Source: Candidatus Latescibacterota bacterium | GTDB lineage: Bacteria; Latescibacterota; UBA2968; UBA8231 | Assembly (NCBI GenBank): GCA_965203175.1 | Contig: OZ241867.1 | Span: forward strand, 5,728,001-5,792,000 | Direction of reading: 5' to 3' | DNA: 64,000 bases | In this document: positions 32,085-57,820 of the stretch, piece after piece | Layout of the letters: each line of letters begins with the position of its first letter | How positions within the stretch are numbered: the stretch's first letter is position 1 | Notes under the pieces: model-generated | What the model saw: only the letters and a program-made list of their open reading frames with translations | Databases searched by the model: none | What the model was told of the DNA's origin: nothing | Made by a program: the position numbers and the translations under genes

Positions 32085-32085
32085 T

Positions 32086-34792: not shown

Positions 34793-37141
34793 ATGAATTT
34801 TCGCATGGCCCTCGTCGCCGTCTTGGTCTTGGGCAGTAGCTATCCGCTAGCAGCCGATCAGATACGCTATGACTCGGCGCGCGACTGGCGGCAATGGGAG
34901 GATCTGCCTTTGGGCGCGGTGGAATTGACGCCGTCGGGCTCGATCCAGCCAACCCGGATTGAAAAGGCGACCGACGCCGTGCGCGATTTGGACAAATTCG
35001 GCGGCGGCATCCGCAACGCGGGATCCAATCTCAACACCACTCGTTTGGCCATTGACGGCAATCCAGCGACCGGCTGGGCACCCGATCCAGAAGCCGGTCC
35101 GGACGAGTGGTTTATCGAGATTGACTTGGGCCGCGCAGTCTCGGCCAAAAGCGTCACTTTGGTATTCGACGCGGAGGCTCCGCCCTTTGAACTTTTCGAC
35201 CTCCTGCTCTCGACCGGCGAGCCGGAAACCGACTTTATCGCCGCACCTATTGAAGGTTCCTTGGTCTATCGCGTCAAAGGGCGTATCAAGGAAAACACCC
35301 ACCATCGGGTGACGTACCAAATAGAACAAATCGACGAAGAGCCAATCCAATTCATCCGCTTTGAGCCACTGCTCCTAGTGCCCGATGCCCGTCTCACCGA
35401 GATCGAAGTCGAGACCATCGGCGACAACATCGCCCTCGGGCTATTGGAACGCGGCGGGTCGGTCGATATCAACATTAATCTCGCTAGCAACGAATCGCAG
35501 CCTCTCGGCAAAGCGAGAGCGCTCTTTGACGGCGACTTGTACGAGCGCTGGCGTGCTGGCACGGCCTCTAGGGGCCTCACCGATATCCTCGCCCACATGG
35601 TTCTCGACTTAGGCGCAGTCTATTGGGTCGATCAAACGCGGATCATCGGCGGCGTGGTCGTGCGCTCCGGCTTTGGTGGTGGCATTACCACTCGCCACTA
35701 CGTTCACCGCCGGCGCTGGGACTTCCGCTTCTACGAGTTTATGACCTCGGACGGCTCGCTTTCGCCCGACGGCACCCGCCTATGGACCAAGCACTTTTCC
35801 GGTGCCTCGCCTGGCAGTCAGACCTCCAAGGGCCTAGTCGATCACAACTTCGACCTGCTGCCGACGCGATTTGTCCGCATCTTCTGGAAGTACTGGGACA
35901 CCAGTTGCTATTCCTTGCAGCGGCTCGGCGAGGTGGGCGGTGCCAGCACGATCCCAGGCTGCGGAGCTGGTGGGACCACCGACGAGATTCAGATTTTCGG
36001 CGAGGGGTTCCCGTCGGAGGTCGATTTCCGCTCCCCTCTGATCGACTTAGGTGCCGGCAAGAACCTCAACTCCGTGGAGTGGAGCGGAGACGAGCCGCCC
36101 GGTACGCGCATTGAGATTCGCACCCGTACCGGCAACGAAATTTTGGAAACCTATAGCTTCTATGACAAAAACGGCAAGGAAGTCTCCGAGAGGAGATACA
36201 ACAAGCTCATTCCCAGCTTCAAAGGCCCGATCGATACCACTCTCGCCGCGGGCGGCGATTGGAGTGCGTGGAGTCGCATTTACAGCTTCTCAGGCGAGGC
36301 TTTTCTCTCGCCCTCGCCGCGCCGCTACCTCGAAATCGACGTGCGCATGACCTCGGATTCTCCGACTGTGGGGGCTTCTCTCGACCACTTGGCCGTCAAT
36401 TTCACCCAACCGCTCGCCGGCCGCGTACTCGGCGAAATTTCTCCTCAGCAGGCCCTACCGGGAGTACTGACGGAGTTTACCTACTACTTGCGGCCCGAAA
36501 ACGCCAGCGGATTCGACCGCCTCGCCGTCGAGTCGGACACACCGGTGCAATTTACGAGCGTCGCGCACAATGGCACCGCGCTCGACGACGCGCAGGTGGA
36601 CACCACCGCGAGCGGCTTCTTAGTCCATCTGCCCAACCACATCCGCACCGACCAACTCATCGAGCTAAAATTTGAATCCTCCGTATTTAGACAATCTACG
36701 CGCTTCGACGTCTTTTTGCAGGACAGCCGCCAAGACGAGAGCGTGCGGCAGCGCGTGGACCCGGGCGACGCCACCGACCAGATTGAAAGTAACACCAACA
36801 TCGTCAGCTTGCCGGTCTCCCAGGAGTTACTCGCCAATATGTCCCTTTTGTCCAAGGCAATTACCCCCAACGGCGATGGGATCAACGACGAACTGACGCT
36901 GGAGATCGCACTGGTCAATGTGCTGACACCGCGCCCTCTGCGATTGCGCCTGTACGACCTCGCCGGCCGGCCGGTGTACGACCGCAGCGAAGACAGCCGC
37001 GCTGGCCAGCGCGAACTCGTCTGGAATGGCCGCGACAGCCGTGGAGATCGCGTGGCCCCAGGCCTGTACGTGCTCGAAGTCCTCGTCGAGGGCGATGCTG
37101 GCGACGAGAAAGCGCAAGCGCTCATTTCCGTAGCCTACTAG
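34793..37141 (+). CDS. Secreted protein type A: discoidin-like domains + FlgD-Ig/CHU_C-like C-terminal domain
   Basis: Start re-set to MNFRMAL; AIDGNPATGW..IEIDLGR; SPLIDLG; RTRTG; DWSAWS; SPSPRRY; ITPNGDGINDEL...YDLAGR...WNGRD...PGLY; ends VAY. Confidence 0.85.
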   Translation: MNFRMALVAVLVLGSSYPLAADQIRYDSARDWRQWEDLPLGAVELTPSGSIQPTRIEKATDAVRDLDKFGGGIRNAGSNLNTTRLAIDGNPATGWAPDPEAGPDEWFIEIDLGRAVSAKSVTLVFDAEAPPFELFDLLLSTGEPETDFIAAPIEGSLVYRVKGRIKENTHHRVTYQIEQIDEEPIQFIRFEPLLLVPDARLTEIEVETIGDNIALGLLERGGSVDININLASNESQPLGKARALFDGDLYERWRAGTASRGLTDILAHMVLDLGAVYWVDQTRIIGGVVVRSGFGGGITTRHYVHRRRWDFRFYEFMTSDGSLSPDGTRLWTKHFSGASPGSQTSKGLVDHNFDLLPTRFVRIFWKYWDTSCYSLQRLGEVGGASTIPGCGAGGTTDEIQIFGEGFPSEVDFRSPLIDLGAGKNLNSVEWSGDEPPGTRIEIRTRTGNEILETYSFYDKNGKEVSERRYNKLIPSFKGPIDTTLAAGGDWSAWSRIYSFSGEAFLSPSPRRYLEIDVRMTSDSPTVGASLDHLAVNFTQPLAGRVLGEISPQQALPGVLTEFTYYLRPENASGFDRLAVESDTPVQFTSVAHNGTALDDAQVDTTASGFLVHLPNHIRTDQLIELKFESSVFRQSTRFDVFLQDSRQDESVRQRVDPGDATDQIESNTNIVSLPVSQELLANMSLLSKAITPNGDGINDELTLEIALVNVLTPRPLRLRLYDLAGRPVYDRSEDSRAGQRELVWNGRDSRGDRVAPGLYVLEVLVEGDAGDEKAQALISVAY

Positions 37142-37154
37142 GAGGATCTGTGGG

Positions 37155-37215
37155 CAAAAAAATCTTGACAGCCAAGTACATATTTATTTGTTTACCCAAC
37201 TATATATTATAAAAT
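37155..37215 (+). promoter_or_regulatory. AT-rich internal promoter region
   Basis: TTGACA at 37165-37170 and TATATATTATAAAAT at 37201-37215; the -35/-10 pairing is ambiguous. Confidence 0.5.
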
Positions 37216-37362
37216 GCCCCGAAAAATCGCCGATGAAAGGAGGTTTGTAGTACCAACCACTGCACTTTTGAGCAACTCCGTAAATTCCGCCCGTTGAAGC
37301 TCTATGGCGGGCCTTTTCTTTTCACTTTTTATGTCCAGCAACTATATGAGGAGGATTTAACA

Positions 37363-38274
37363 ATGCGCAAAGTCCTAGCTTTGACTCTAGGCGCGTTGCT
37401 CGTCGCTGGCACTGCCTTCGCGCAGGAGCCGGCTGAAGTACCGCTCTTTTTCGCCGTGGGTATCCCTAGCAACGCCTTGCCCACCATCGATGGCGACAAT
37501 TCCGACTGGGCTTGGGTTGATCGCAGCTTTGAGGTCACCATTGAAGACATGAATCCGCTGACCGGCGGTGCCGACGACGCCGATGACCTGTTCATCGACC
37601 TGATCATTGGCTGGAGCGATGCCAACAACCGCATTCACGCCATGGTTCACGTCCACGACGACTTCCTGATCGTCGATAAGAACCCCACCTGCACCTTCCG
37701 CGATGACAACTGCGAAGTGCATTTCGACCCCGACAACCAAGGCGGCGGTCCGTACTCGGCGCCCAACGACCAAGACTTGCAGCCGGCCTACCAGATGTGC
37801 CTGAGCTTCTCCGAGCAGTTCTCGCGCGTCCAGATGTACAACGGCGCGCTGGGTAACTTCGAGCAGGACGCCCTGAACTTCTGGTGGACCCATACCGACT
37901 TTGTCGATGCCGGTCACGTCAACGAAGGCCAAGAGTACTACTACGAGTTCAGCGCCGAGTTGATGGACCCGCTCTCGATCAGTGGTGGCCCGGACGCCAG
38001 CACGGTGTGGACGCTTGCGGCCGAGCAGACCATCGGCATGTCGATCTCGATTGACGACGCCGACGAAGGTCTCAACGCCAACGGCAACGATCCAATGTCT
38101 GAGAACTGCTGTGAGAACGGTTTCTGGTGGCAGGCCCAGTACAGCATGGCCGAGCAGTTTATGAACAGCGGCGGCATGCCCGACATCTTCCTGACGCCAA
38201 TTGAAGCTGTAGACACGGCAGTCGAGGAAACCTCTTGGGGCCAAGTCAAGTCGCTGGTAGGCGAAGAGCTCTAA
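37363..38274 (+). CDS. Secreted acidic CBM9/DOMON-like protein with TAVEETSWGQVK tail (paralog 2)
   Basis: GAGGAGG RBS; signal peptide MRKVLALTLGALLVAGTAFA; near-identical core to 27779-28696. Confidence 0.82.
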   Translation: MRKVLALTLGALLVAGTAFAQEPAEVPLFFAVGIPSNALPTIDGDNSDWAWVDRSFEVTIEDMNPLTGGADDADDLFIDLIIGWSDANNRIHAMVHVHDDFLIVDKNPTCTFRDDNCEVHFDPDNQGGGPYSAPNDQDLQPAYQMCLSFSEQFSRVQMYNGALGNFEQDALNFWWTHTDFVDAGHVNEGQEYYYEFSAELMDPLSISGGPDASTVWTLAAEQTIGMSISIDDADEGLNANGNDPMSENCCENGFWWQAQYSMAEQFMNSGGMPDIFLTPIEAVDTAVEETSWGQVKSLVGEEL

Positions 38275-38311
38275 ACCAAACTTTAGCAGTCTTCGTCTTA
38301 CAGTTAAGTTC

Positions 38312-38352
38312 ACAAGGGGAGGGGAATCGGTTCCCCTCCCCTTGTTTTGTTT
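38312..38352 (+). terminator. Rho-independent terminator-like hairpin
   Basis: ACAAGGGGAGGGGAA-TCGG-TTCCCCTCCCCTTGT followed by TTTGTTT. Confidence 0.85.
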
Positions 38353-38377
38353 ATGGGGACGAGAGGCAACACGCGCT

Positions 38378-40177
38378 ATGTTCAAATGGCGATTTAGGCT
38401 GTTGATCTGCATTCTGTTGGGCGCTAGGGCGGCCAGCGCCGTGGACGTGTGGACCGCGGGAGGCTCTGGCTTTGCATGGGACGATGTCGGCGAACTGACC
38501 GGACTCACCACCGATGCATCTGTCCTGCTCCCTGCCGTGGTGGACTCGACCACCAATGCCGTCGCAAACCTCACCCTGACGCGGCGGGGTGGCAACATCT
38601 CCTCACCGCAGTCGCGCGAGAACCTGACCGGCCTGCTCACTGACGGCAATGCCGAGACCTTCTGGCGCGTCACGCGCGAGCGACGCCCCGATGGCACCTC
38701 CATGGTCATCGACTTAGGCGCGATCCTGCCGATCAACCGCATTCGCTTTCAGGGCAACCCCGACATCTTCCTCCGCGCCTATGAGCTTTTTGTTCACGAC
38801 GGCAACCCCGCGCAACTGCGCGAGGATCGTCCGATCGCCTTCATCAACCAAGTCAGCGCCAATCTCGAACAGAGCGAATCGGATATTGACGCTCATATCC
38901 CCCTCCAGTTTGTGCGCTTCATCCGCCTGATTAGCCGCTCGGGCCAAGAGTTCATCATCGAGGAAGTCGAGGTCTTTGGCGATGGCTTCGCGCCCACTGG
39001 CAGCTATCTCTCCGAAGTCATCGACCTCGGCGAGGCGGCCAACTTTGGCCAAATTCGCCTGCCGACCCGCTTTGACCCCTTAACTAACGTGGTATTGCAG
39101 ACGCGCACAGGCTCGGTGCCCGACCCCAAAATTTTCTATCGCAAAACCGATATCTTTGAGGGCGAAGATCGGCAGGAAGAACCCATCTTGCCGATAGGCT
39201 CACCCGAGGCGGCCGACGAGTATGACGATCTGACCTCGTCCGACAAGGGCGCGATCATCGACAACATCGACGAGTGGAGCCCTTGGTCGGCACCATACGA
39301 GGACTTCTTTGGCGATCTACTCTCGCCGGGCAACCGCCGCTACGTCCAGTTCCGTCTGTTGTTTTCGTCCGAGGACGCGCGCCAGTCGGCCTTTGTCGAT
39401 TCGTTCTCCTTTGACTATTCGATTCCGACACTGGCTGAAGAACTGACAGCCGAAGTCACTCCGGCGACGGTCACCCTCGGCGAGAGCAACACCTTCGACT
39501 ACTACATTCGCTCGACTTTCGGTGATGCCAACGATGGGTTCGACCGCGTGGAAATCCGCACGCCTTTCAAGGCCACGGTCAATAGCGTCGAACTAGACGG
39601 GGGACCCGTCGCTTTTACAGAAGAGGACGCGCAGGACGAGAGCAGGCTAGCCATCCAACTGACCGACGACCGAGTGACTGAATCGGGCCAGCTTTTGCGC
39701 ATCCGCTTCGAGGCCATGGTAACGGTCTATGGCACCACTTTCTTTGCCAAGGTTTTCGACAGTCAGACCGGCGAACTCGGTCAAGACGTGGTGGCCGGAG
39801 ACGCTACCCCCGAAGCCCAAGCCGACCGCTTGTCCATCCAAGGTGCGTTGCGCCAAGAACTCGTCCTCGAATTGAAGGCCGATCCGCCGGTATTTAGTCC
39901 CAACGGCGATGGAGTCAACGACCAGCTCCAGGTGTCCTACATCTTGCTGCGCGCGCTCTCGCAGGTGCCCGCCGATCTAATCGTGTACGACCTCGCGGGC
40001 CGCCCAGTGCGGCATTTGCAAAAAAGCGGCGCGCTCAATGGCCCACAACAAGTGGCTTGGGATGGCTTGGACGAGAGCGGTACCACGGTACCGCCCGGAC
40101 TCTACCTCTTGCAGCTTTCCATTGATACAGATACCGGCTCTGAGGACCGGTCATTGTTAGTGGGACTAGCGTACTGA
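38378..40177 (+). CDS. Secreted protein type B with FlgD-Ig/CHU_C-like C-terminal domain
   Basis: Signal peptide; LTDGNAETFW..IDLGA; SEVIDLGEAANFG; EWSPWS; SPGNRRY; FSPNGDGVND...PPGLY; ends LAY. Confidence 0.85.
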   Translation: MFKWRFRLLICILLGARAASAVDVWTAGGSGFAWDDVGELTGLTTDASVLLPAVVDSTTNAVANLTLTRRGGNISSPQSRENLTGLLTDGNAETFWRVTRERRPDGTSMVIDLGAILPINRIRFQGNPDIFLRAYELFVHDGNPAQLREDRPIAFINQVSANLEQSESDIDAHIPLQFVRFIRLISRSGQEFIIEEVEVFGDGFAPTGSYLSEVIDLGEAANFGQIRLPTRFDPLTNVVLQTRTGSVPDPKIFYRKTDIFEGEDRQEEPILPIGSPEAADEYDDLTSSDKGAIIDNIDEWSPWSAPYEDFFGDLLSPGNRRYVQFRLLFSSEDARQSAFVDSFSFDYSIPTLAEELTAEVTPATVTLGESNTFDYYIRSTFGDANDGFDRVEIRTPFKATVNSVELDGGPVAFTEEDAQDESRLAIQLTDDRVTESGQLLRIRFEAMVTVYGTTFFAKVFDSQTGELGQDVVAGDATPEAQADRLSIQGALRQELVLELKADPPVFSPNGDGVNDQLQVSYILLRALSQVPADLIVYDLAGRPVRHLQKSGALNGPQQVAWDGLDESGTTVPPGLYLLQLSIDTDTGSEDRSLLVGLAY

Positions 40178-40241
40178 GCGCGGCCCGCAGCCAGCCCGCT
40201 ATGGCATATCAATATGCAGGACGGGCTAAGGGAACACGGCT

Positions 40242-42611
40242 ATGACAATCACTCGCGCACTATGCCTCGTTATGGTGTTGGGCAATTTCGCTTTTGGCGA
40301 GCGCGTCTCGTTTAACTCTCGCTCTGCTTGGCAAGAGTGGACGCACCCGGTCGGGGCCGTGGAACTCCAAGCGACTGGTCGGATCCAGCCTGTATCCGTG
40401 CGTAAAAACATCGACGCCGTGCGCAATGCCGAGCACTTTGGCGGCGGCATCCGCAGCGTTGGCAGCAATGCCCGCGACGCGGACCACATCATGGATGGCG
40501 ACCCAGCGACTAGCTGGTCTCCCGATCCGGCCGACGGCATTGAAGACGCCTATATCGAACTCGACTTGGGCCGCTTGGTCACGGCCTCCGAAATCGTCAT
40601 TACTTTCGACAAATCCGCGCCGCCCTTTGAGTTTTTCACCATCCTGCTGTCGAGCGGCGAGAAGTTCTTTACCAACGCATTGGTGCCTGTAGAAGGCACC
40701 TTAGGCTACGGCCTCTCCAAGGGAGTTGGCTTCAATGAGAGCCACGAGCTCGTCCTCGATCCCCGCCAGCGCACCTTGGGCTTGAGCGCGTCTGGCTCGG
40801 ACGACATTGGCGGTAGCTTTGCCGATGGCAGCGGCAGCGAGTTCAAGAAATCTTCGGGCCTGATTCGCATCATTCGCATCGAACTAGCCAAGTTCGTCGA
40901 GGGTGCCGGCCTAGCCGAGATTTCGGTCTCTACTATCGGCGACAACATCTCCCTCGGGATTATTGAGCGCGGCGGCAACATCGAACTCATCACCGACTTG
41001 CAGGCCGTGCTCTCCGGCGGCGAGAACATGGTTGACGGCGATATTGTCACCAACTGGGGCATGCAGACCTACCACCAGACCCAGACCGGCTTCGATATCT
41101 TCAATCGCATCATCTTCGACCTAGGGGCCCATTACTGGATTGACCAGATTCGCATCATCGGCGAGCCAGCCGGTGCCCCGTCGCGGATTCGCAGCCGCTA
41201 CGCCAACTTTTTCTGGTACCAGCTCCTCGCTTCCGACGGCTCGATTGCTCCAGATGGTACCCTGAATTTCCACGAGATTGCCTTTGTTGACGACAGCCCG
41301 CTGAACGAGACGGATATCCGCAACTTCGACCATCAATTCGAGTTGCAGAAAATTCGCTACATCAAGCAGTATTTCCCTTCCTCCCGCCACGGCGGCCAGC
41401 GCACGGGCACCCATGGCTCCTACCGCCTCTTCGCCCTGATTAGCGAGTTCCAGATCTACGGCGAGGGCTTTCCAGCCGAGTTGCAGTTAACCTCGCCGAT
41501 CCTCGACTTAGGCGAAGCCAAGGCCCTGACTTCGGTCGAGTGGGACTCCGAGACCCCGCCCGGCACGCGCATTGAGCTGCGCAGCCGCACCGGCAATGAA
41601 GTCGTCGAGAACATTCACTACTTCGACAAGAAGGGCAAAGAGATTACCGAGCGGAAGTGGAACAAGACGCCCAAGAGCCTGCGCGGGCCGACGAAAATCA
41701 CGATTTCCGTCGGCTCGGACTGGAGCGTATGGAGCGATCCTTATGTAACTTCCGGCGCGCTCTTTAACTCGCCCTCGCCGCGCCGCTATGTCCAACTCGA
41801 CCTGCGCCTGATTTCGGACGATCCTAGCACAGCACCATCGATCAACTCCCTTCACTTGAACACGGAAAATCCCATTGCTCTCGAAACTCGCGCTGAGGTC
41901 TTCCCCAGCCAAGTCGAACCGGGTGTCAAAAAGGACTTTACGTACTTCGTCCTGCCGATCTTTGGCGGGCGCTCGCAGGGCTTTGACCGCTTGACCATGA
42001 TCGCGTCCGTGCCTATTGATTTCACCAGCCTGAAGTTGGGAGACGAGTCGGTGGAGGTCGAAATCACCCCGGTCGCCGAAGGATTTGTCGTCGATTTACC
42101 AGCCACGATCCGCCGCTCGGAGCTAATCGAGCTTTCGTTTAGCAGTATCATTTACCAAAACCAGACGCGTTTCGACCTTTTCCTCGGCAACAGTAACCTC
42201 GGCACCGACGTGCGCCAACTCGTTGACCAAGGCGATGCCAAAGCCGATGTGCCGAGTGAATCCGTCTCCGTGCAACTGCCAATCAACGACCTCCTACTGG
42301 CCAACGTCGCCCTTTCGACGCCTGTGCTGACGCCCAATGGAGATGGGATCGGCGACGAGCTAGCCATTGAATTCGACGCGCTCAAGCTGGTGACTCCGCG
42401 ACCAATTCGGGTCCATATATACGACTTGGCCGGCCGCAAAGTGCGCGCGCTCGACAGCGGCGATGGGCTCGCTCGGCGCTACCACTTTTCTTGGAATGGT
42501 CGCGACGATGTCGGTGCGCTCGTGAGGCCGGGGACTTATTTATTACAAATCGAGATCGCCGGCGATTCCGAAACCGAGACGGTGCAGCGGATCGTACCGG
42601 TGGCCTACTGA
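40242..42611 (+). CDS. Secreted protein type A (paralog of 34793-37141)
   Basis: WQEW..PVGAVEL..GRIQP, FGGGIR, ELDLGR, APPFE, TIGDNI, LTPNGDGIGD; ends VAY. Confidence 0.87.
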   Translation: MTITRALCLVMVLGNFAFGERVSFNSRSAWQEWTHPVGAVELQATGRIQPVSVRKNIDAVRNAEHFGGGIRSVGSNARDADHIMDGDPATSWSPDPADGIEDAYIELDLGRLVTASEIVITFDKSAPPFEFFTILLSSGEKFFTNALVPVEGTLGYGLSKGVGFNESHELVLDPRQRTLGLSASGSDDIGGSFADGSGSEFKKSSGLIRIIRIELAKFVEGAGLAEISVSTIGDNISLGIIERGGNIELITDLQAVLSGGENMVDGDIVTNWGMQTYHQTQTGFDIFNRIIFDLGAHYWIDQIRIIGEPAGAPSRIRSRYANFFWYQLLASDGSIAPDGTLNFHEIAFVDDSPLNETDIRNFDHQFELQKIRYIKQYFPSSRHGGQRTGTHGSYRLFALISEFQIYGEGFPAELQLTSPILDLGEAKALTSVEWDSETPPGTRIELRSRTGNEVVENIHYFDKKGKEITERKWNKTPKSLRGPTKITISVGSDWSVWSDPYVTSGALFNSPSPRRYVQLDLRLISDDPSTAPSINSLHLNTENPIALETRAEVFPSQVEPGVKKDFTYFVLPIFGGRSQGFDRLTMIASVPIDFTSLKLGDESVEVEITPVAEGFVVDLPATIRRSELIELSFSSIIYQNQTRFDLFLGNSNLGTDVRQLVDQGDAKADVPSESVSVQLPINDLLLANVALSTPVLTPNGDGIGDELAIEFDALKLVTPRPIRVHIYDLAGRKVRALDSGDGLARRYHFSWNGRDDVGALVRPGTYLLQIEIAGDSETETVQRIVPVAY

Positions 42612-42651
42612 GGGGACTGCTTTTGCCACCTTACAGCAAAAAGGACCTGCG

Positions 42652-49273: not shown

Positions 49274-49301
49274 CTGTCCGGTGCCCGACACGCGTTCATC
49301 A

Positions 49302-52300: not shown

Positions 52301-53927
52301 CGAGGGCGGCCTCATCCGCGACCGCGCCTGGCGCGGCATGCAGGATTCCATCTTGGACTACGTGCAGAGCGCGTTCGGCGACCGCGCCTTGGTCGTGCCG
52401 CGCGCCTGGTACTTGTCGCCAGTCGAATCCGAACGAGCCTATATCGACTTTGTCGCCACTCCAACCGGCGCGGCCAGTTTCGCGCACGGCTTGGTGGGCC
52501 TACAGCCGGCTGAAGCCGAGGTCACGGGCCTCGACGCGCACATCTCGGCGGGCCGCTTCTTCGCCGCGGGCGATGACAAGACAGTCATCTTGCCCGACAG
52601 CCTAGCCGCGCTCGTCGGCATTGGCCCCGAGGACGTGGGCACGGCTTCCATCGCGCTCTACGGCGAGGAGTACCAAGTCATCGGCCTGTTTGACAGCGCA
52701 GCCCTGAAAGAAGTCCTCGATCTCGATGGCGAGCGCCTAACGCCCGTGGATACGGTCAAAGACGCCGGCCTCATCACGCGCGAGAGCACCGAAGATCCGC
52801 GCGCCTTGGCCGCCACCGCGGTCGAGACCTTCAACCACCTCGAAGTAATCAACACGCTCTTCTTGCCCTATGAGCGGGTCCGCGCCATGGATGGCCGCCT
52901 GCGCTCCATCGCCATTGCCGCGGACGCAGACGACCCAGAATTCGTCCGGCGCGTGGAGTCCTTTATGTCGCGGGTGGCCTTGACCCTGTTCGTCGGCCAA
53001 GGCGACCGCGTCGTGGCCTACAGCTCGATTGGCTCCACCGAAATAAGCGGGGCCGGCCAGCTTTTGGTGCCGGTGATCATCGCCGCCTTGATCGTGCTCA
53101 ATACCATGATGGGGGCCGTGTATGAGCGCGTGCGCGAAATCGGCATCTACAGCGTCGTGGGCTTGGCCCCCAGCCACATCGGCCTGCTGTTTTTGGCCGA
53201 ATCCACGGTCTTTGCCACCTTTGGCGCGGTGGTCGGCTACGCCCTAGGCCAAATCGCCCATCTGTTCATGCTGCAATACGGGCTGCTCGCCGGCCTGACG
53301 CTCAACTACTCGTCGCTCTCCGCAGTATGGGCTACGGTAGTAGTCATCGGCACGGTCTATTTATCGACCTTGTATCCAGCGCGCATGGCGGCCAACATGG
53401 CCGTCCCAGACGTGACGCGGCAATGGCAATTCCCTCCCCCCGTTGGCGACCACTGGCGCTTTGACTTTCCCTTCACGGTCGGCGGAGCCGAAGTCCCGAG
53501 CATGTACGTGTATCTCAAGTCGGTCTTCGCCGCGTATGGTGAAGGCTCGATCGGCGATTTCATCGCCCGCGACGTCGATTTATCCGTCACCACCGACGGG
53601 CCGGAGCCATCCTACGCCATTGCCATGCGCACTTGGCTGGCACCCTACGACTTGGGTATCAGCCAGCAGGTGCGCCTACAGGCAACTCCCACCGGCGAGC
53701 ACCACATCTACAAAATCGAGACCCACATCGAGCGCCTCAGCGGCGACGTGGCCTCTTGGCAGCGGATGAATCGCAAATTCCTCAACGTGCTGCGCAAGCG
53801 ATTCCTCGTCTGGCGCACCCTAGCACCGGGGATCCGCCAAGAGTACCGCGAGCGCGTGTCATCCGAATTTACCCCCAATGCTGAAGACGCACAGCATACC
53901 CTCAGTAGCGCCGGACAGCCGACATGA
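49302..53927 (+). CDS. Giant membrane protein: degenerate peptidase M28-like ectodomain + FtsX/MacB-like permease
   Basis: SRVTGYAG; AHYDA..APGAESATG.AALLEIAR; NLSKRRLRTALT; ISAGRFF; VLNTMMGAVYERVREIGIYSVVGLAP..LFLAES; LYPARMA. Confidence 0.88.
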   Translation: MLTKFLLFATAAFFLLSVTAFDPATISRWIERAIGWVPLREAPATDEAPSLREAVAQINATDLERHLRILTADSSRVTGYAGAANAARYIEGEFHRLGLRVTSELFPLSVPLDRGGRLRLGGSDVAFPIYGLWPNHVRSPSLPPGGVSGHLIDLGRGSLAEMDGQRLAGSIALMGFGSGNAHVEARSLGAQAILLYDDGRVTRSEAAEKFLQVPVDIPRFWVEAADAEILRQQARSGDAQVHLEARMEWEQVQARNIFAVLPGLAEDMPRGQRREIQQWDEQIIVLQAHYDAISVVPALAPGAESATGMAALLEIARLLVAEGTRYTVLFLATPGHFQGLAGVNDFLYRHARKSEHFRDQIPPAERIDFRLFVGLDLASYSPRVGSFTMGTFYNSAWRNDDYQKNLMAHYASRFARYNREIFADSARYQDAVAPQKRVWKNFMPVRLALDSEAAAFVGKEALSFVTPNQLRQRVDTPLDRLEFVALDNLAEQTRTIAGLMLKAAADPDFFNDTKLTLRDWGHSLEGNIYWFDRDVNFAVPKAPVPNALVTYLQPGPNSVAGVRTLMATHGDENGYFKFDIVRNRFANRIQAFELDEYGRIVSAPDLGEEGDKTYPGTQPYGWWENRMLQVLFRCRALSFLEVVDPRYLSAMDRVNVLGTNDAPPRSFSLNYIENQSAVQDRVVQAGVVFAEPGTRVKILAGEGAFGGESALAGVRYMLTNADSALFADLDPAHVDMATIERAQGGGFPVEQGLIPYPALQAARDIWIIDEARIKQMVRHGIVLEQLQAMHGQAREALIEARDKLAAFDYTGYQRAVRRALGLEARIYPEVKATANDAVRAVIFYFALLLPFAFFCERFFFGFPDVRRQIAGFVGIFVLVFLILRFVHPAFKLSSSPYIIFLAFVILALGVLVIFIVVTRFKALLQRRKGAVSGVHETDVGRIAAGFAAVLLGISNLSKRRLRTALTAATLTFLTFTVNSFTSVKSSLDFYRLPRDTSPLYEGGLIRDRAWRGMQDSILDYVQSAFGDRALVVPRAWYLSPVESERAYIDFVATPTGAASFAHGLVGLQPAEAEVTGLDAHISAGRFFAAGDDKTVILPDSLAALVGIGPEDVGTASIALYGEEYQVIGLFDSAALKEVLDLDGERLTPVDTVKDAGLITRESTEDPRALAATAVETFNHLEVINTLFLPYERVRAMDGRLRSIAIAADADDPEFVRRVESFMSRVALTLFVGQGDRVVAYSSIGSTEISGAGQLLVPVIIAALIVLNTMMGAVYERVREIGIYSVVGLAPSHIGLLFLAESTVFATFGAVVGYALGQIAHLFMLQYGLLAGLTLNYSSLSAVWATVVVIGTVYLSTLYPARMAANMAVPDVTRQWQFPPPVGDHWRFDFPFTVGGAEVPSMYVYLKSVFAAYGEGSIGDFIARDVDLSVTTDGPEPSYAIAMRTWLAPYDLGISQQVRLQATPTGEHHIYKIETHIERLSGDVASWQRMNRKFLNVLRKRFLVWRTLAPGIRQEYRERVSSEFTPNAEDAQHTLSSAGQPT

Positions 53928-55834
53928 CCGCACGCGCCTTCCTCATCGGCTTGGGCCTCGTGGTCCTGATCAACATCGGGGCCCCGTACAGCATCTTCAT
54001 CCTCAAGTCCTCGCAGTGGGCGATCAGCTATCTGCCCTTGAGTGTGGTCTTTCTCTTTACCGGCTTGGTCTTTCTCAACGCCACGGCCAAGTCGCTGCTA
54101 AAAGTGCGCGGCCTGAGCACCAGCGAACTGGGCCTCATCTTCATCATGTCCCTAGTGGGAGCCTCGATTCCCACCTGGGGCACCTCCACGTACATGATCG
54201 CGGTTGTCGCCGCCCCCCAGTACTTTGCCTCGCCCGAGAATCAGTGGCAGAGCAAAGTAGTGCAGCACATCGAAGAATGGCTGGTGCCCAACGACGCGAT
54301 TGCCCTCAAGTGGTTCTACAACGGCCTGCCCGCGGGCGAATCCATTCCTTGGGGCGCTTGGATCGTGCCGCTCTTTTGGTGGACCAGTTTGGTGATGGCC
54401 ATCTTCTTTTTGTGCCAGTGCATGGTCGCGGCACTGCGCAAGCAGTGGGTCGAGTACGAGCGCCTGCCCTTCGCCCTGATGGAATTGCCCCAACAGCTCA
54501 TCGCCCCGCCGCAAGGCTCTAACTGGCCTAGCTTCGTGCGGCAAAAGGCGTTCTGGTTCGGCTTTGCCCTGCCCTTTTGCATGGTCATGTGGAACGTGGT
54601 CACGTACTTTACTCCGGCCTTCCCGCCCATCCCGCGCGATCTTTCCGACCCCATCCGCATTGGCCGCGAATTTCCCGCCATCAACACCAACATCAACTGG
54701 GCCATCGTCGGCTTCACGTACTTCGTCAATCTCGACGTGTCGTTCAGCATGTGGTTTTTCACGGTGCTAACCATGCTCCAACAGGGCCTGTTCAACCGCT
54801 TTGGCTATACCATTGCCGGCCGCGACGTGTACACCCTCGGCCATCCCGGCATCGGCTGGCAGTCTTTCGGCGCGCTAATCGCCCTCGTCGGCGGAATGCT
54901 GTGGATGGCGCGCGGGCACCTCGGCGCAATCTGGCGCAAAGCCGTGCGCAACGATGCAGACATCGACGATACCAACGAGCTGATGTCCTACCGGATGATC
55001 GTCTTTGGCGGCGGGCTGGCTCTGCTCTACATCGCCTTCTGGATGTGGCGGGCCGGCATGAACCCGCCCACGGTCGCGCTCTTCATCTTGGCCACCTTGG
55101 TCCTCTACGTCGGCATTACGCGCATCATCATGGAGGGCGGCTTGCTCTTCAGCCGCGCCCCGCTAGTCGGTCAGACCTTCGTCGGCTACGCGCTCGGGCC
55201 GCACGCTACCGCGCAGAGCAACATCGCCATGGGGCTGTCCTACGGCTGGCACCACGAGCTCAAGGGCTTCTTCATGGTCGCCGCGGCCAACAGCGCCAAG
55301 GTGTCTGGCTACATTCGCGGCAACCGCCGCTGGCTGAGCTTTTTCATCCTCCTCTCGGCACTGGTGGCCCTCGTCGTCTCCATGGCCTTTGCGCTCTACA
55401 TGGGCTACTCCTTTGGCGCGTACAACTACGGAGGGTGGATCTTCGGCACGGGTTCGCAAGTGCCCTACGTGGAAAGCCTGCGCAAAATCGACCTCAAGGC
55501 CCCCGATTGGACGCGGTTGGGCCACCTCGTCAGCGGCGCGGGTGCAATGGGACTTTTGACCTTTATGCGCTACCGCTTCTCGTGGTGGCCCCTGCACCCG
55601 ATTGGCATGCCGGTCGGCATCTGTTCCTACCCCATGACCATTATCGTCTTTTCGATCTTCGTCTCCTGGCTGGCCAAATGGGCTATTATGCGCTCGGGCG
55701 GCATCGGCCTCTACCACCGCGCCCAACCCTTTTTCATCGGCCTCATTCTCGGGTACTTCACCGCAATCGGCCTGTCCTTTTGCATTGATATGATCTGGTT
55801 CCCCGGGCAAGGGCACCCGCTGTACGGAAACTAG
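53924..55834 (+). CDS. DUF6785/DUF6784-type polytopic membrane protein
   Basis: ATGA overlap with the upstream gene; YFASPENQW, RKQWVEYERLPFAL, TRIIMEGG, WWPLHPIG, PFFIGLILG. Confidence 0.87.
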   Translation: MTARAFLIGLGLVVLINIGAPYSIFILKSSQWAISYLPLSVVFLFTGLVFLNATAKSLLKVRGLSTSELGLIFIMSLVGASIPTWGTSTYMIAVVAAPQYFASPENQWQSKVVQHIEEWLVPNDAIALKWFYNGLPAGESIPWGAWIVPLFWWTSLVMAIFFLCQCMVAALRKQWVEYERLPFALMELPQQLIAPPQGSNWPSFVRQKAFWFGFALPFCMVMWNVVTYFTPAFPPIPRDLSDPIRIGREFPAINTNINWAIVGFTYFVNLDVSFSMWFFTVLTMLQQGLFNRFGYTIAGRDVYTLGHPGIGWQSFGALIALVGGMLWMARGHLGAIWRKAVRNDADIDDTNELMSYRMIVFGGGLALLYIAFWMWRAGMNPPTVALFILATLVLYVGITRIIMEGGLLFSRAPLVGQTFVGYALGPHATAQSNIAMGLSYGWHHELKGFFMVAAANSAKVSGYIRGNRRWLSFFILLSALVALVVSMAFALYMGYSFGAYNYGGWIFGTGSQVPYVESLRKIDLKAPDWTRLGHLVSGAGAMGLLTFMRYRFSWWPLHPIGMPVGICSYPMTIIVFSIFVSWLAKWAIMRSGGIGLYHRAQPFFIGLILGYFTAIGLSFCIDMIWFPGQGHPLYGN

Positions 55835-55837
55835 CGC

Positions 55838-57820
55838 ATGGCTCAAGACGACAAAAAATCACCCGAGCTGATTCCCTCGGACCTCCAATTTGAACCGGGT
55901 TTCAACCTCAAGACCCTGTGGGCCGCGCTGTTTGTCGGCTTCATCATGCTGCCCGGGGCCATCTACTTGGGGTTGGTGACTGGCCAGAGCATGGCCGGCG
56001 GTGCCGAGTGGGTGACGCTCATCCTCTTCATCGAAATCGCCAAGCGCTCCTTTGCGCGCCTGCGCACCCAAGAGGTGATCATTCTCTACTGGGTAGCCGG
56101 CGGCCTAGTCATGATGGGCGGCAAGTTGGGCACAGGAGCCGAACTGTTCGGCGGACCTTTTGGCGGGCTGATCTGGGACCAGTACTTGATCCAATCGCCC
56201 CAAGCCGACGGCTTGCACCAGCACATCCCCGATTGGGTGGTGCCCCCGCGCGGTTCACAAGCCCTAGAGGGACGCTCCTTTTTGCACCCCGACTGGCTCA
56301 AGCCCATCGCCCTGCTGCTGACCGTCATCGTGATGCAGAAGGTCAACAGTCTGTCCTTGGGCTACGTGCTCTTCCGCATCACCAACGACATCGAGCGCCT
56401 GCCGTACCCACTGGCCGCAGTGCAGGCTGGCGGCGCGACCGCCCTCGCCGAGAGTTCGGGACCGAGCCAAGGCTGGCGCTGGGAGGTCTTTAGCATCGGA
56501 GCCTTTATCGGCATTATCTGGGGACTGTTCTACGTAGTCATCCCCACGATCTCGGGCATTTTCTTCACCGAAACCGTGACGATCCTGCCGATTCCGTTTA
56601 TTGACCTGACCGTCTCCCTCAAGGAAATGCTGCCAGCCAGCATCATGGGCATTGGCACGGACCTCGGACACGTCATGGTCGGCTTTGTCCTGCCTTTTTG
56701 GATCGTGGTCGGCTCCTTTGCCGCGGCCTTCCTCGTCAACATCCTCATCAACCCGGTACTCTACTCGTACGACGTGCTGCACACCTGGGAGCCGGGCATG
56801 TCGGCAATCCCAACGCAGATCGCCAATTCCTTCGACTTCTGGCTCAGCTTCTCCATTGGCGGCGCAGTCCTCGTGGCCGTGATGGGTTTTGCCATGGTGG
56901 GCAAGACCCTGTGGACTTTGCGCGGGGTTAAGCGCGAAGGCGACGATAGCGGGCTACCCGCAGGACGCGGTGACATCCCCATCCCCCTCGCCTTGGGCAT
57001 CTGGGCGGTGAGCACGCTCGGCTTTGTGGTCTTGGTGTGGTATTTGGTGCCGGAATTTCCCTGGTGGATCAGTGCGTTCTTCGGCTTTGTGTGGACGCCG
57101 ATTTACTCGTACATCGGCGCGCGCATGATCGGCCTGACCGGCTCGCCGCAAGGGGCGTCCTTCCCCTATCTGCGCGAAGGCTCCTTCTACCTGTCGGGCT
57201 ATCAGGGCGCGGCCGTGTGGTTTGCGCCGATCCCGCTCTTCCAGTGGGGCTACGAAGCCGCGGCCTTCAAGCAATTAGAACTGACCCGCACCCACTTCGG
57301 CAGCATCGTCAAGCTGGCCGGCGTGACCTTGCTAATCATGTTCGTCTGCTCGTTTATATTCTGGTCTTTTATCTGGAAGCTTGGGCCGATTCCCTCGTCG
57401 GCCTATCCCTACGTGCAGAAGTTTTGGCCCTTCCACGCCACCATGCAGGCGTTCTGGGCCAAATCAACGCTCGCCGAGGGCGGCAATGAGCTGATCAGGT
57501 CCATCATTCGCTGGGAATACGTGCTCACGGGCGCGCTGGGCAGCGCGGGAATCTTGGGCGGGCTATCACTCTTGCGCTGGCCGGTCGCCCTGTTCTACGG
57601 CTTCATCGGCGGCGTGGGCGCGTGGCCGCACTTTCTGCTGCCCAACTTCATCGGTGCCTTGCTGGGCCGCTATCACTTGCAGAAGCGCTTTGGCGAAGCC
57701 CGCTGGCGGGCGTACGCGCCAATTCTCTTGGCGGGCTATTCGTGCGGAATGGGATTGGTCGGCATGTCTTCCATCGCGCTGGCGCTGATTTCTAAAGCAG
57801 TGTCGAGCATTGTGTTTTAG
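55838..57820 (+). CDS. OPT-like (oligopeptide transporter-like) polytopic membrane protein
   Basis: Many TM segments; GFNLKTLWAALFVGFIMLPG, DIERLPYPLA, PIPSSAYPY, YAPILLAGYSCG. Confidence 0.75.
   Translation: MAQDDKKSPELIPSDLQFEPGFNLKTLWAALFVGFIMLPGAIYLGLVTGQSMAGGAEWVTLILFIEIAKRSFARLRTQEVIILYWVAGGLVMMGGKLGTGAELFGGPFGGLIWDQYLIQSPQADGLHQHIPDWVVPPRGSQALEGRSFLHPDWLKPIALLLTVIVMQKVNSLSLGYVLFRITNDIERLPYPLAAVQAGGATALAESSGPSQGWRWEVFSIGAFIGIIWGLFYVVIPTISGIFFTETVTILPIPFIDLTVSLKEMLPASIMGIGTDLGHVMVGFVLPFWIVVGSFAAAFLVNILINPVLYSYDVLHTWEPGMSAIPTQIANSFDFWLSFSIGGAVLVAVMGFAMVGKTLWTLRGVKREGDDSGLPAGRGDIPIPLALGIWAVSTLGFVVLVWYLVPEFPWWISAFFGFVWTPIYSYIGARMIGLTGSPQGASFPYLREGSFYLSGYQGAAVWFAPIPLFQWGYEAAAFKQLELTRTHFGSIVKLAGVTLLIMFVCSFIFWSFIWKLGPIPSSAYPYVQKFWPFHATMQAFWAKSTLAEGGNELIRSIIRWEYVLTGALGSAGILGGLSLLRWPVALFYGFIGGVGAWPHFLLPNFIGALLGRYHLQKRFGEARWRAYAPILLAGYSCGMGLVGMSSIALALISKAVSSIVF

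Follow-up and report, generated by a model that had tools for sequence, protein, structure and literature searches.

The type B CTD/PorP-SprF pairs of Bacteroidota join surface cargo with outer-membrane barrels. Two papers describe type B cargo genes as linked to cognate PorP/SprF barrels, which anchor or shuttle the cargo (PMC9143113; PMC12618676), and a third describes the use of twin cysteines by SprF (PMC12635249). Here, we analysed a 23-kb gene cluster in a window of 64,000 nucleotides (the whole stretch of DNA analysed) from a Candidatus Latescibacterota MAG, representing an uncultured, sponge-associated bacterium. An earlier note on this DNA had proposed a complete outer-to-inner-membrane machine. 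The reading that we prefer, with roughly even confidence, is a lectin-display cassette that is loaded by the T9SS and has a cognate barrel of its own, lying beside an independent inner-membrane uptake module.

Layout of the locus

The cluster consists of 11 co-oriented, closely spaced ORFs on the + strand (34748/34793-57820), in the order A, T, B, A', B', O, S, L, hairpin, X, D, P, and a divergent arm lies at 25266-34600. Signal peptides and lipoboxes are readable at the N-termini of the cluster proteins. The features are as follows:

34793-37141, + strand: A, secreted lectin-like protein (F5_F8_type_C 37.2 bits, CHU_C 31.3 bits, cut-off 27)
37294-38274, + strand: T ("twin"), secreted CBM9-like protein (CBM9_1 25 bits, cut-off 23.4)
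38342-40177, + strand: B, secreted CBM32 lectin-like protein, putative T9SS cargo (AF2 model, pLDDT 86.2)
40242-42611, + strand: A', paralogue of A (F5_F8_type_C 34.5, CHU_C 29.8, FlgD_ig 29.2 bits)
42652-44433, + strand: B', paralogue of B, directly upstream of O (FlgD_ig 31 bits, CHU_C 27.8 bits)
44523-47138, + strand: O, predicted outer-membrane beta-barrel of a new family (AF2 model)
47126-48433, + strand: S, SurA-like lipoprotein (SurA_N_3 20.1 bits, a weak match under the cut-off of 27.2; EpsD PPIase E 2.5e-5; lipobox LWAC)
48456-49220, + strand: L, lipoprotein of unknown family (lipobox LLGC)
49246-49269, + strand: terminator-like hairpin between the two modules (10 pairs, then a T-run)
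49281-53927, + strand: X, 1548-aa inner-membrane protein (Peptidase_M28 36.3 bits, FtsX 44.5 bits)
53924-55834, + strand: D, polytopic DUF6785+DUF6784 permease (373 and 87 bits)
55838-57820, + strand: P, polytopic OPT-like permease (ESM Atlas neighbours)
57847-57895, both strands: bidirectional terminator hairpin (flanking A-run and T-run)
33689-34600, - strand: FGE-sulfatase-family enzyme with a TWGEIK tail (FGE-sulfatase 185.5 bits)
32086-33696, - strand: MauG/MbnH-like di-haem peroxidase with a type A T9SS CTD (CCP_MauG 126 bits; TIGR04183 34.2 bits, cut-off 23)
28887-32084, - strand: G, lipoprotein with FG-GAP propeller, ASPIC/UnbV and TPR (Pfam; lipobox LWGC)
27779-28747, - strand: second T, CBM9-like, SWGQVK tail (CBM9_1 18 bits, below cut-off)
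25773-27683, - strand: second D, DUF6785+DUF6784 (414 and 99.7 bits)
25266-25742, - strand: small membrane-anchored TPR protein (TPR_19 38 bits)

The A ORF opens at 34748, with the ATG at 34793 as the likely start and a signal peptide after M16; T likely starts at 37363, and the L ORF opens at 48369 with M30, at 48456, as its likely start. The reading frames of O and S overlap by 13 nt (47126-47138), and the start of D overlaps the stop codon of X. The hairpin at 49246-49269 ranked first among the terminator-like sites scanned (-22.7 kcal/mol, z -2.6). Read by eye, the folds of 11 orthologous loci show a hairpin with a T-run at the L/X junction in eight, where the stem letters have changed. 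The hairpin at 57847-57895 scored -33.5 and -37.4 kcal/mol on its two strands (z -7.6 and -8.4). The co-oriented genes, the internal hairpin and the terminal bidirectional terminator are all present as the earlier note described them, and ORFs and Pfam domains agree with its gene inventory and order. Its statement on missing parts was confirmed by a profile search (Pfam/NCBIfam) of the 17 cluster proteins, which found no ABC ATPase, TonB/ExbBD, Plug/SusC or SusD domain and no T9SS core gene; no energy source for transport was found among the cluster proteins by these profiles.

The divergent arm repeats parts of the kit, as had been noticed: it holds a second T (75% identity to T), a second D, and CTD-tailed and TWGEIK-tailed enzymes. 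The genome contains 55 copies of G, and 30 of the 62 O genes are no more than 10 kb away from one. Runs labelled sponge metagenome from several studies contain the stretch, and RNA libraries of three studies yielded contigs covering both modules (90-99% likeness), which documents presence in the libraries and is not proof of transcription.

Lectin-like proteins, the barrel and accessory genes

A, B, A' and B' each combine an F5/8 type C (discoidin) domain with a CHU_C/FlgD_ig/Por_Secre_tail-like CTD, whose consensus is TPNGDGxND and WDGRD...PPGxY. A contains two discoidin/CBM32-type domains, Ig-like domains and a T9SS CTD; it corresponds to B with an additional N-terminal domain (hhalign 100%), and A' is 40% identical to it. 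In the all-beta model of B, residues 68-219 are predicted to form a CBM32 fold (VIA, Z 16.0, rmsd 2.1 A, 126 aligned) and residues 504-611 superpose on the PorU CTD (6za2, Z 12.6), while sequence and model-structure comparison found no catalytic domain. CHU_C, a type B CTD, exceeded the Pfam cut-off in three of the four proteins; the type B assignment is unsettled because the NCBIfam type B model stayed below its cut-off (20.5 and 16.1 bits against 35). B' matched TIGR04183 at 21 bits and TIGR04131 at 20.5 bits, each below cut-off. Since all four proteins carry T9SS CTDs, we regard them as T9SS cargo, and domain content and the model of B indicate that they are non-catalytic CBM32/discoidin lectin-like proteins. 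The translocon SprA (618 bits, cut-off 200) and the sortase PorU (632 bits, cut-off 420) are encoded elsewhere in the same genome. The "FlgD tails" of the earlier note are T9SS CTDs.

The barrel candidate was upheld by structure prediction: the AF2 model of O is a large beta-barrel of ~26 strands (pLDDT 73.8, pTM 0.73). Two inserts, one a beta-sandwich (258-360) and the other rich in Asp (~462-575), would lie in extracellular loops under canonical topology, and the N-terminal segment ~46-90 is conserved. O matched no Pfam/NCBIfam family, and Pfam found neither a Plug domain nor an SLH or peptidoglycan-binding domain in it. Comparison of the predicted structure returned generic large barrels alone, with the SlpA barrel closest (Z 14.7, rmsd 8.8 A). 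SlpA is pore-forming. Of 14 distant relatives of O, three gave weak SlpA_C matches (17-20 bits, cut-off 35). Among 1.84 billion representatives, the family accounts for 1044 clusters at the 50% identity level. These results point to O as a new, Pfam-less family of large outer-membrane barrel.

The cluster is not unique, since the same genome repeats its families, with 62 O, 169 A/B, 32 T, 18 L, 56 D and 7 X genes; putative lectin-display cassettes occupy roughly 45 loci, and O and A/B paralogues share ~30-45% identity. The proposed link between tail-bearing proteins and the barrel was borne out, as an A/B gene lies within 10 kb of every O (62/62) and within 3 kb of 59. Of the 169 A/B genes, 121 fall inside the 10-kb zones around O genes, which cover 15% of the genome, and 48 fall outside them. 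A same-strand A/B gene stands directly upstream of O in 48 of 58 cases in other genomes, and within 3 kb in 56. Across a phylum sample of 151 genomes, O was present in 95 and A/B in 80, and all 80 A/B-positive genomes contained O.

Accessory genes are also concentrated near O, at a distance of 10 kb or less for 26 of 32 T, all 16 S and 15 of 18 L genes. T ends in the tail TAVExxSWGQVK, and the tail TAVExxSWGRIK occurred 80 times at C-termini and never internally. L matched no Pfam/NCBIfam family, and its nearest ESM Atlas clusters are unnamed. Twelve cassettes contained 35 extra ORFs, including 6 PPIase chaperones, 6 TPR proteins and 1 CAZyme; a PL4 lyase is present in one cassette.

In the reading that we prefer, module 1 (34793-49220) would be a surface lectin-display cassette. 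A, B, A' and B' would be exported first by Sec and then by the T9SS encoded elsewhere, and O would receive and hold them at the surface, with T, L and S as accessory parts. We infer a surface location for A/B, with O as their anchor or shuttle. Many diversified cassettes would then provide many glycan-binding specificities per cell.

The inner-membrane genes and their distribution

The large ectodomain of X includes PA/M28-like parts and precedes two transmembrane units of the FtsX/MacB type; the PDB matches of X are YtrF, MacB, LolC, aminopeptidase 2ek8 and Nicalin. Binding or gating of substrate, rather than cleavage, is the probable role of the ectodomain, the M28 domain appearing non-catalytic. 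D and P are distant homologues (hhalign 92.8%, E 3.9e-7, 175 columns). P had no Pfam match even at E<=10; it scored 0.98 in the ESM Atlas to "Peptide transporter family" clusters, in which 15-33% of members carry OPT. The tight X-D-P coupling described earlier was reproduced across the genome: all 7 X copies adjoin D and 5 adjoin P, all 5 P copies adjoin X, and one X-D fusion of 2132 aa exists. No ABC ATPase was found among 68 ORFs neighbouring X genes. We also observed M55 and M42 peptidase genes and TonB-dependent receptor genes flanking other X-D loci. Module 2 (49281-57820) may be an inner-membrane uptake module, in which D and P would be two OPT-superfamily-like permeases acting with X as an ATPase-less, double FtsX/MacB-type partner; uptake is the direction that we infer.

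The earlier note took separate distribution of the genes left and right of the 49247 hairpin as evidence against its reading, and these halves are largely distributed apart. In its own genome, X lies near an O at the present locus alone (1/7). O and A/B were absent from families f2 (0/30) and f3 (0/19) of the phylum sample, and five genomes drawn from these 49 carry X at 15 loci, 13 of them flanked by D or P. The same five genomes have 24-62 D matches, and D is as expanded there as in the genome under study, where 56 copies exceed the cut-off; therefore, D does not depend on O. Because X-D-P occurs in families without O and A/B, the halves are not one unit but adjacent modules that are distributed independently of each other. 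Ten related genomes, with O identities as low as 74%, retain precisely the same 11-gene arrangement, which counts against full independence. Of the 56 D genes, 24 are at most 10 kb from an O, against 15% expected; seen from O, 27 of the 62 genes have a D at that distance or closer and 35 have none.

Competing readings and known systems

A single, complete and new secretion or assembly machine, built across the envelope from the 11 genes to export and anchor their own tail-bearing proteins, now appears highly improbable. The co-orientation and close spacing of the genes, and their constant order in related genomes, favour it, but the tails are T9SS CTDs with the core elsewhere, the families are present in many copies, the halves occur apart in this and other genomes with a frequently conserved hairpin between them, and the cluster encodes no energy source. 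Of the earlier interpretation, the inventory, barrel, X-D-P coupling, tail-barrel link and PUL-like option stand; the single self-contained machine does not. That PUL-like option, a TonB-independent capture-and-import system spanning the locus, is possible though unlikely. A/B and T would bind glycan or glycopeptide, O would be an outer-membrane channel, S-type chaperones or L would ferry substrate, and D (here with X and P) would carry it across the inner membrane. The CBM32 and CBM9-like modules, the PL4 lyase, and the peptidase and receptor genes at other X-D loci are consistent with this, as are the size of O, its SlpA likeness and an N-terminal segment that could plug the barrel. D enrichment near O and the kept juxtaposition fit an import link and are superfluous to a display-only reading, against which the predicted 26-strand barrel, bigger than anchoring requires, also counts. 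Arguing against import are the near absence of degrading enzymes from the 12 cassettes, the lack of a Plug domain in O, the expansion of D in genomes without O and A/B, the single X near an O, and the many O genes with no D nearby.

A variable, non-feeding surface coat for sponge-host contact or evasion of phages or grazers, with O and A/B as a structural layer and paralogue diversity as antigenic or recognition variation, seems less probable still. The large, divergent families, the occurrence in sponge-metagenome runs, the S-layer barrel as best structural match of O and the enzyme-poor cassettes suit this idea. However, Latescibacterota records with titles that suggest lake-water and sediment sources contain O and A/B as well, D is enriched near cassettes, and O lacks the SLH or peptidoglycan-binding domains sought.

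The lectin-display cassette with its neighbouring uptake module remains our preferred reading. Membership of O in PorP/SprF itself was rejected, as O has no Pfam match, is about three times longer than the PorP_SprF profile (273 positions) and has no invariant cysteine, whereas twin cysteines are a SprF feature. In arrangement and proposed role, O with A/B resembles the type B CTD/PorP-SprF pairs of Bacteroidota, in which a barrel receives and anchors its cargo.

Layout of the cluster

ORFs, domain scans and predicted folds confirmed the layout that the earlier note had read from the region, namely 11 co-oriented genes, a hairpin within the cluster, a bidirectional terminator and a divergent arm. 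The features are as follows.

34748-57820, plus strand: A, T, B, A', B', O, S, L, X, D and P as 11 successive co-oriented ORFs, the first probably starting with the ATG at 34793
49246-49269: terminator-like hairpin, the best terminator-like site of the scan (z -2.6)
57847-57895: end hairpin, predicted to fold stably on each strand (z -7.6 and -8.4), with an A-run and a T-run on its flanks
25266-34600, divergent arm: second T (75% identical), second D, an FG-GAP/ASPIC/TPR lipoprotein of the G type, an FGE-family enzyme, and a MauG-like enzyme ending in a type A C-terminal domain (CTD)

Here A, B, A' and B' (together A/B) are secreted CBM32/discoidin proteins, T is a CBM9-like protein, O an outer-membrane barrel family, S a SurA-like lipoprotein, L a further lipoprotein, X a protein with an M28-like ectodomain and FtsX parts, and D and P are DUF6785/DUF6784 and OPT-like permeases; G denotes lipoproteins with FG-GAP, ASPIC and TPR parts. 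The signal peptides and lipoboxes of S, L and G were visible in their N-terminal sequences. Pfam and NCBIfam scans found no ABC ATPase, TonB/ExbBD, Plug or T9SS core gene in the cluster, in agreement with the earlier reading, and O, L and P matched no domain in either collection. Among 11 orthologous loci, 8 had a hairpin with a T-run after it at the L/X junction, as read from the predicted folds.

Upstream of the divergent arm lie an 880-aa protein with a weak spermidine-synthase-like domain (17934-20576) and a DUF4389 protein (17060-18097). A spermine-synthase-like ORF also flanks another cassette (L141:52-1557).

The cluster had been proposed to form one new machine. Our results replaced this proposal with two modules: a cassette of A/B and O with accessory proteins, which depends on a known secretion system, and the inner-membrane module X-D-P.

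Cargo, barrel and accessory proteins of the cassette

[quoted passage not shown] SprA and PorU were both found, distant from the window, scoring 618 and 632 bits against cut-offs of 200 and 420, respectively. The PorU profile gave 231 candidates at first look; 51 of these were scored, and all but one of the 51 matches listed fell on the PorU C-terminal domain. The GldM profile had no match in this genome, but the controls were silent as well, so this result does not show absence. There were 4 TonB_C matches and 31 matches above the Plug cut-off, none of them inside the cluster.

A, B, A' and B' each have an F5/8 type C (discoidin) domain at the N-terminus, and their C-terminal domain matches CHU_C, FlgD_ig and Por_Secre_tail in the Pfam and NCBIfam scans. 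For F5_F8_type_C, A (37.2 bits) and A' (34.5) exceeded the cut-off of 28.2, while B (23.0) and B' (22.4) stayed under it. The Pfam CHU_C model (PF13585, cut-off 27) was reached by three of the four proteins (A 31.3, A' 29.8, B' 27.8 and B 26.8 bits). In NCBIfam, the type B model TIGR04131 scored 20.5 and 16.1 bits, under its cut-off of 35, and the type A model TIGR04183 scored 21 bits, under its cut-off of 23. By sequence, the cargo CTD appears closest to the type B (CHU_C) model, with the Pfam cut-off reached in 3/4 and that of NCBIfam not reached. Its consensus includes TPNGDGxND and WDGRD..G..VPPGxY. A corresponds to B plus an additional N-terminal discoidin domain, and the two form one family (hhalign 100%).

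The AlphaFold2 (AF2) model of B (pLDDT 86.2) was all-beta, with a CBM32 domain, a second sandwich, Ig-like domains and the CTD. Residues 68-219 had the CBM32 fold (VIA Z 16.0, rmsd 2.1 A), and residues 504-611 superposed on the PorU CTD 6za2_B (Z 12.6, rmsd 2.5 A, 99 aligned). Profile searches against the PDB matched A/B to discoidin/CBM32, FlgD/Ig and PorU CTD only, and no catalytic domain was found. Since SprA and PorU are present in the genome and nearly all listed PorU matches fell on its CTD, the 'FlgD tails' of the earlier note are T9SS C-terminal domains, with translocon and sortase encoded elsewhere. These results showed that A/B are T9SS-type cargo without a catalytic domain.

The barrel candidate was modelled from 35 sequences, and the AF2 model (pLDDT 73.8, pTM 0.73) was indeed a large barrel, with about 26 strands counted from its strand list; even-numbered strands were followed by tight turns and odd-numbered strands by long connections. 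On canonical outer-membrane topology, its two inserts (a beta-sandwich at 258-360 and an Asp-rich stretch at ~462-575) would be extracellular. An N-terminal segment (~46-90) was highly conserved and aromatic-rich, and was modelled at low confidence. Fold searches returned generic large barrels only: SlpA ranked first, porins, FimD and MtrB came next, LptD stood lower down and TonB-dependent receptors were also present, while no T9SS barrel was among the fold matches listed. The top structural match was Deinococcus SlpA (7zgx, 8ae1; Foldseek E 6e-10; VIA Z 14.7, 429 residues aligned), from which O differs in that the superposition has an rmsd of 8.8 A and a TM-score of ~0.17 and that O has no SLH domain. 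SlpA_C matched weakly in 3 of 14 distant O relatives (17-20 bits), far under its cut-off of 35. Among PDB sequences the O profile found no solved structure (best E 1.6, a septin-like protein).

O matched no Pfam family at E<=0.01 and hence not PorP_SprF; PF11751 (PorP_SprF) was likewise without a match in the whole of the own genome, but as the controls were silent too, that search does not show absence. No cysteine occurred among the invariant or near-invariant columns of the 35 O sequences, and none in the C-tail of O. Plug, TonB_dep_Rec and SusD matched none of the 17 cluster proteins, the 31 Plug matches of the genome lying elsewhere. The O family comprised 1044 clusters at 50% identity (E<=0.001) among 1.84 billion representatives. 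A complex prediction of O (24-871) with the B' CTD (478-593) scored 0.00 against a mark of 0.32, which counts neither way on binding.

We then counted copies by tblastn of the window proteins against the own genome (coverage >=0.45, E<1e-6, overlapping hits assigned to the best query). This gave 62 O, 70 A, 99 B, 56 D, 55 G, 32 T, 18 L, 16 S, 15 of a family labelled F, 7 X and 5 P, in 111 clusters, and the DUF6785 Pfam profile independently counted 56 copies above cut-off. The recurring kit was T-(L)-B-(B)-A-O-(O)-S, frequently with G and D added. Linkage to O is summarised below.

Table. Linkage of families to O in the own genome
O with A/B within 10 kb: 62/62
O with A/B within 3 kb: 59/62
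A/B within 10 kb of an O: 121/169
T within 10 kb of an O: 26/32
L within 10 kb of an O: 15/18
S within 10 kb of an O: 16/16
D within 10 kb of an O: 24/56
Background: 15% of the genome lies no more than 10 kb from an O

Within cassettes, 24 of 62 O genes stood in tandem O-O pairs, at most 500 bp from another O.

Named homologues of O and X came from Candidatus Latescibacterota MAGs, some of them labelled Gemmatimonadetes. The best 80 O loci, taken from contigs of one genome per species, were mostly labelled Latescibacterota or Latescibacteria, some Gemmatimonadetes, Gemmatimonadota or Gemmatimonadaceae, and two just 'uncultured bacterium'. In 10 of them (L041-L050; 74-96% O identity), the arrangement A, T, B, A', B', O, S, L, X (D, P) was intact as far as the flank reached, and the short contigs L051 and L063 gave partial views of gene order. 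Another 68 loci were paralogous, and 58 were scored after 10 had been set aside for a short upstream flank: A/B stood directly upstream of O on the same strand in 48/58 and within 3 kb in 56/58, and D was present in 16/58. In a phylum sample of 151 genomes, with A/B counted at E<=1e-40, O occurred in 95 and A/B in 80, and every A/B-positive genome (80/80) had O. The 15 genomes with O and without A/B belonged to families where O is divergent (best E 5e-22 to 2e-121). Two Latescibacterota families, f2 (0/30) and f3 (0/19), had neither O nor A/B, in genomes 82-100% complete. Together, the own-genome and cross-genome counts showed that O is tightly and specifically linked to A/B.

The accessory proteins were then considered. 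T matched CBM9_1 in Pfam. S remained below the cut-offs of both SurA_N_3 (20.1 bits, cut-off 27.2) and SurA_N_2 (18.9, cut-off 28.5), and Rotamase had no match in S itself; by tblastn, S also matched the gene at 23566-25191, which carries Rotamase domains. For comparison, 35 non-family ORFs with GC3 >=0.6 were scanned in 12 other cassettes, 7 low-GC3 ORFs having been removed beforehand. Six were PPIase/SurA-like, six were TPR proteins and one was a CAZyme (PL4 lyase). Rotamase domains were found in 6 neighbour ORFs, with similar PPIase genes in 6 of the 12 cassettes examined. Outside the cluster, the window holds two further SurA/PpiD-like PPIase genes (11395-12960 and 23566-25191). The nearest ESM Atlas clusters of L were unnamed hypothetical lipoproteins.

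FG-GAP/ASPIC-UnbV proteins, often with TPR, were very abundant (G type, 55 copies in the genome), and G-type genes come directly after O in many loci. The window holds five FG-GAP/ASPIC-UnbV proteins:

3131-5611: FG-GAP/ASPIC-UnbV protein
14320-15948: FG-GAP/ASPIC-UnbV protein
20374-23457: FG-GAP/ASPIC-UnbV protein
28887-32084: FG-GAP/ASPIC-UnbV protein
61265-62863: FG-GAP/ASPIC-UnbV protein

A C-terminal tail with the consensus T-[AS]-V-E-x-x-[ST]-W-G-[RQ]-[ILV]-K-[AS]-x-[FL], and a median of 5 residues after K, was seen genome-wide. Its sites in the window are:

38230-38274: tail site
27779-27823: tail site
33689-33760: tail site

In a crude set of 4644 ORFs, all 80 occurrences of [ST]WG.[IVL]K lay no more than 30 aa from the C-terminus; T stood at -7 in 79/84 cases and V at -5 in 76/84. 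Carriers were the T family, an FGE enzyme, and tandem ORF arrays with tails like '...DGSNLVNLTNGLGG..PAWQP...', which we take to be PD40/TolB-like repeats. No TM helix followed the tail. T homologues in other genomes kept it (27/34 exact), and carriers other than T showed no enrichment near O (11/59). We found no family model for the tail in Pfam or NCBIfam and no paper on it in the literature searched. The tail (TAVExxSWGRIK) is a candidate new sorting or processing tag, and as a sorting signal it is directly testable.

The X-D-P module is independent of the O-A/B pair

X contains Peptidase_M28 and FtsX domains in Pfam (FtsX 44.5 bits, cut-off 25.5), one X paralogue contains MacB_PCD (34.8 bits), and the best PDB sequence matches were YtrF, MacB, LolC/F and FtsX. 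No ABC ATPase was found in X, in 37 window proteins, or in the 68 ORFs (>=110 aa) within 20-kb windows around the other six X genes. The neighbours of these genes include TonB-dependent receptors, ExbB/ExbD, M55 and M42 peptidases and a sulfatase.

The M28 match of X reached 36.3 bits (cut-off 21.3), but covered only profile positions 12-129 of 193. The ectodomain aligned to the PA/M28 aminopeptidase 2ek8 and to Nicalin, which we take to be an inactive M28-like protein. The 'DD' and 'EE' positions of 2ek8, presumably metal-binding or catalytic, are 'ES' and 'GH' in X, and because of these changes the M28 domain of X is, judged by its residues, probably non-catalytic.

The tight coupling of the three inner-membrane genes proposed earlier held in the own genome, where D adjoined all 7 X genes and P adjoined 5 of 7, with one X-D fusion. 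The fusion is natural, a single 2132-aa ORF (L036:6405-12803; G000:C1:2862405-2868803) directly followed by a TonB-dependent receptor gene and then a sulfatase gene.

X lay near O in only one of seven cases in the own genome, at the window locus. Five genomes of families f2 and f3, which lack O, held 15 X loci, 13 of them with D and/or P adjacent (8/10 among fetched loci and 5/5 by coordinates). The same five genomes had 25, 35, 49, 24 and 62 D matches, an expansion equal to that of the own genome, and SprA was present in 5/5. These findings showed that the X-D(-P) module is independent of the O-A/B pair, and the idea of a single unit across the 49246-49269 hairpin was given up.

The D gene of the cluster scored 373 bits for DUF6785 and 87 bits for DUF6784, and the second D scored 414 and 99.7, with both profiles above cut-off. 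A third DUF6785/DUF6784 copy starts at ~63829 (the others lie at 25773-27683 and 53924-55834). DUF6785 had no match in 14 control genomes, and DUF6785/DUF6784 probably serves the phylum as its main importer family at the inner membrane. By ESM Atlas features, P scored 0.98 against 'Peptide transporter family' clusters, with OPT on 15-33% of the cluster members, and the DUF6785 clusters carried OPT labels on 11-19% of members. OPT (PF03169) had no match in any of the 5 P paralogues at E<=10, the resemblance resting on ESM features only. P and D are distant homologues over the first ~175 columns (hhalign 92.8%). One P paralogue of 1075 aa has inserted PDZ domains (L039:11163-14390), with a group II intron reverse transcriptase/maturase 1.7 kb downstream (L039:16082-17842).

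Working model and comparison with known systems

In the model we propose, A/B would be exported by Sec and the T9SS, and then received and held at the surface by the O of their own cassette. The X-D-P module would most likely take up small substrates, with X assisting the OPT-like permeases from the periplasmic side by binding or gating. The chief alternative to this model makes O itself the import channel of a TonB-independent analogue of a polysaccharide utilization locus (PUL). In favour of such a channel are the enrichment of D near O and the conserved side-by-side placement of the modules; however, enzymes are nearly absent from the cassettes, and D is equally expanded in lineages that lack O.

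We also considered a broader joint reading, which we judge unlikely, that Latescibacterota have their own TonB-free PUL counterpart built from unrelated parts. CBM32 lectins delivered by the T9SS would attach to a giant barrel from a new family, which would also be the import channel; cassette-specific SurA-like chaperones would carry captured glycan or glycopeptide across the periplasm, and the expanded OPT-like DUF6785 permeases would perform uptake. In some loci the permeases would be coupled to an FtsX-type mechanotransducer that lacks an ATPase and carries a dead M28 domain, and further components would be sorted by the new short C-terminal tag TAVExxSWGRIK.

Latescibacterota are widespread, and to our knowledge have no cultured member. 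Sequencing runs from several studies, some labelled sponge metagenome, contained 0.75-0.92 of the window's sampled words, and Latescibacterota were common in sponge metagenome runs containing the window. In four RNA libraries from three studies, contigs of 90-99% likeness covered A', B', O, S, L, X, D and P; these contigs give presence in RNA libraries only, since they say nothing about level, strand or co-transcription and may stem from DNA carry-over. The families show a huge, lineage-specific expansion, and from copy numbers and typical gene lengths we estimate that O, A/B, T, L, G, D and X, families without a described function, make up about a tenth of the genome's DNA. The accessible literature that was searched contained no description of the cassettes, DUF6785 or the T9SS in Latescibacterota. 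Of two Latescibacterota genome papers, the accessible text of PMC12993501 did not mention secretion system, T9SS, oligopeptide, discoidin, outer membrane or TonB, and that of PMC4454575, for six terms, mentioned only ABC oligopeptide transporters, porins, TonB and T6SS.

Should the cassettes serve for lectin display or glycan import, they would be the cells' main interface with food or host. The model, if true, would show how the T9SS is employed beyond Bacteroidota and would place a barrel family related to neither PorP/SprF nor SusC in the role of partner, and would provide the first functional context both for DUF6785/DUF6784 and for an FtsX-type protein apparently working without an ATPase.

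The closest known logic for the A/B-O pair is that of type B CTD/PorP-SprF pairs (F. johnsoniae SprB/SprF; P. gingivalis PG1035/PorP/PorE). In the accessible parts of the literature, type B cargo genes are linked to cognate PorP/SprF barrels needed for secretion and anchoring (PMC9143113, PMC12618676), F. johnsoniae has 12 type B substrates (PMC12618676), and SprF uses twin cysteines (PMC12635249). Shared with these pairs are a C-terminal T9SS domain on the cargo (CHU_C cut-off in 3/4), cargo genes directly upstream of the barrel gene, some orphans without a near barrel, and a T9SS core located elsewhere in the genome. Unlike PorP/SprF, O is about three times the profile length and has no sequence match, two predicted extracellular inserts and no conserved cysteines; unlike F. 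johnsoniae with its 12 substrates, the present genome has 62 barrels, and SurA-like chaperones are added per cassette. Because it lacks a profile match and a conserved cysteine, we regard O as a barrel that may work like PorP/SprF and not as a member of that family. G, the TPR/propeller lipoprotein often found near cassettes, recalls PorE, which has a TPR plus propeller build.

For the inner-membrane module, the nearest systems are the type VII ABC systems MacB, LolCDE and FtsEX, with which X shares FtsX-type TM units and, in one paralogue, the MacB periplasmic core domain. It differs from them in having no ABC ATPase gene beside any of the 7 X genes, two units in one chain, an M28/PA-like ectodomain of ~800 aa, and an obligatory link, once a fusion, to an OPT-like permease. 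P is near the OPT family (PF03169) by language-model features, with no Pfam match, and D is filed as DUF6785/DUF6784.

Bacteroidota PULs (SusC/SusD), as they are generally known, share with the cassettes the many paralogous loci, an outer-membrane barrel combined with surface glycan-binding proteins, and an inner-membrane transporter that is often near. The cassettes differ in that O has no Plug or TonB-dependent receptor domain, SusD is missing and there are almost no enzymes, and their binding proteins would reach the surface via the T9SS, whereas those of PULs do so as lipoproteins.
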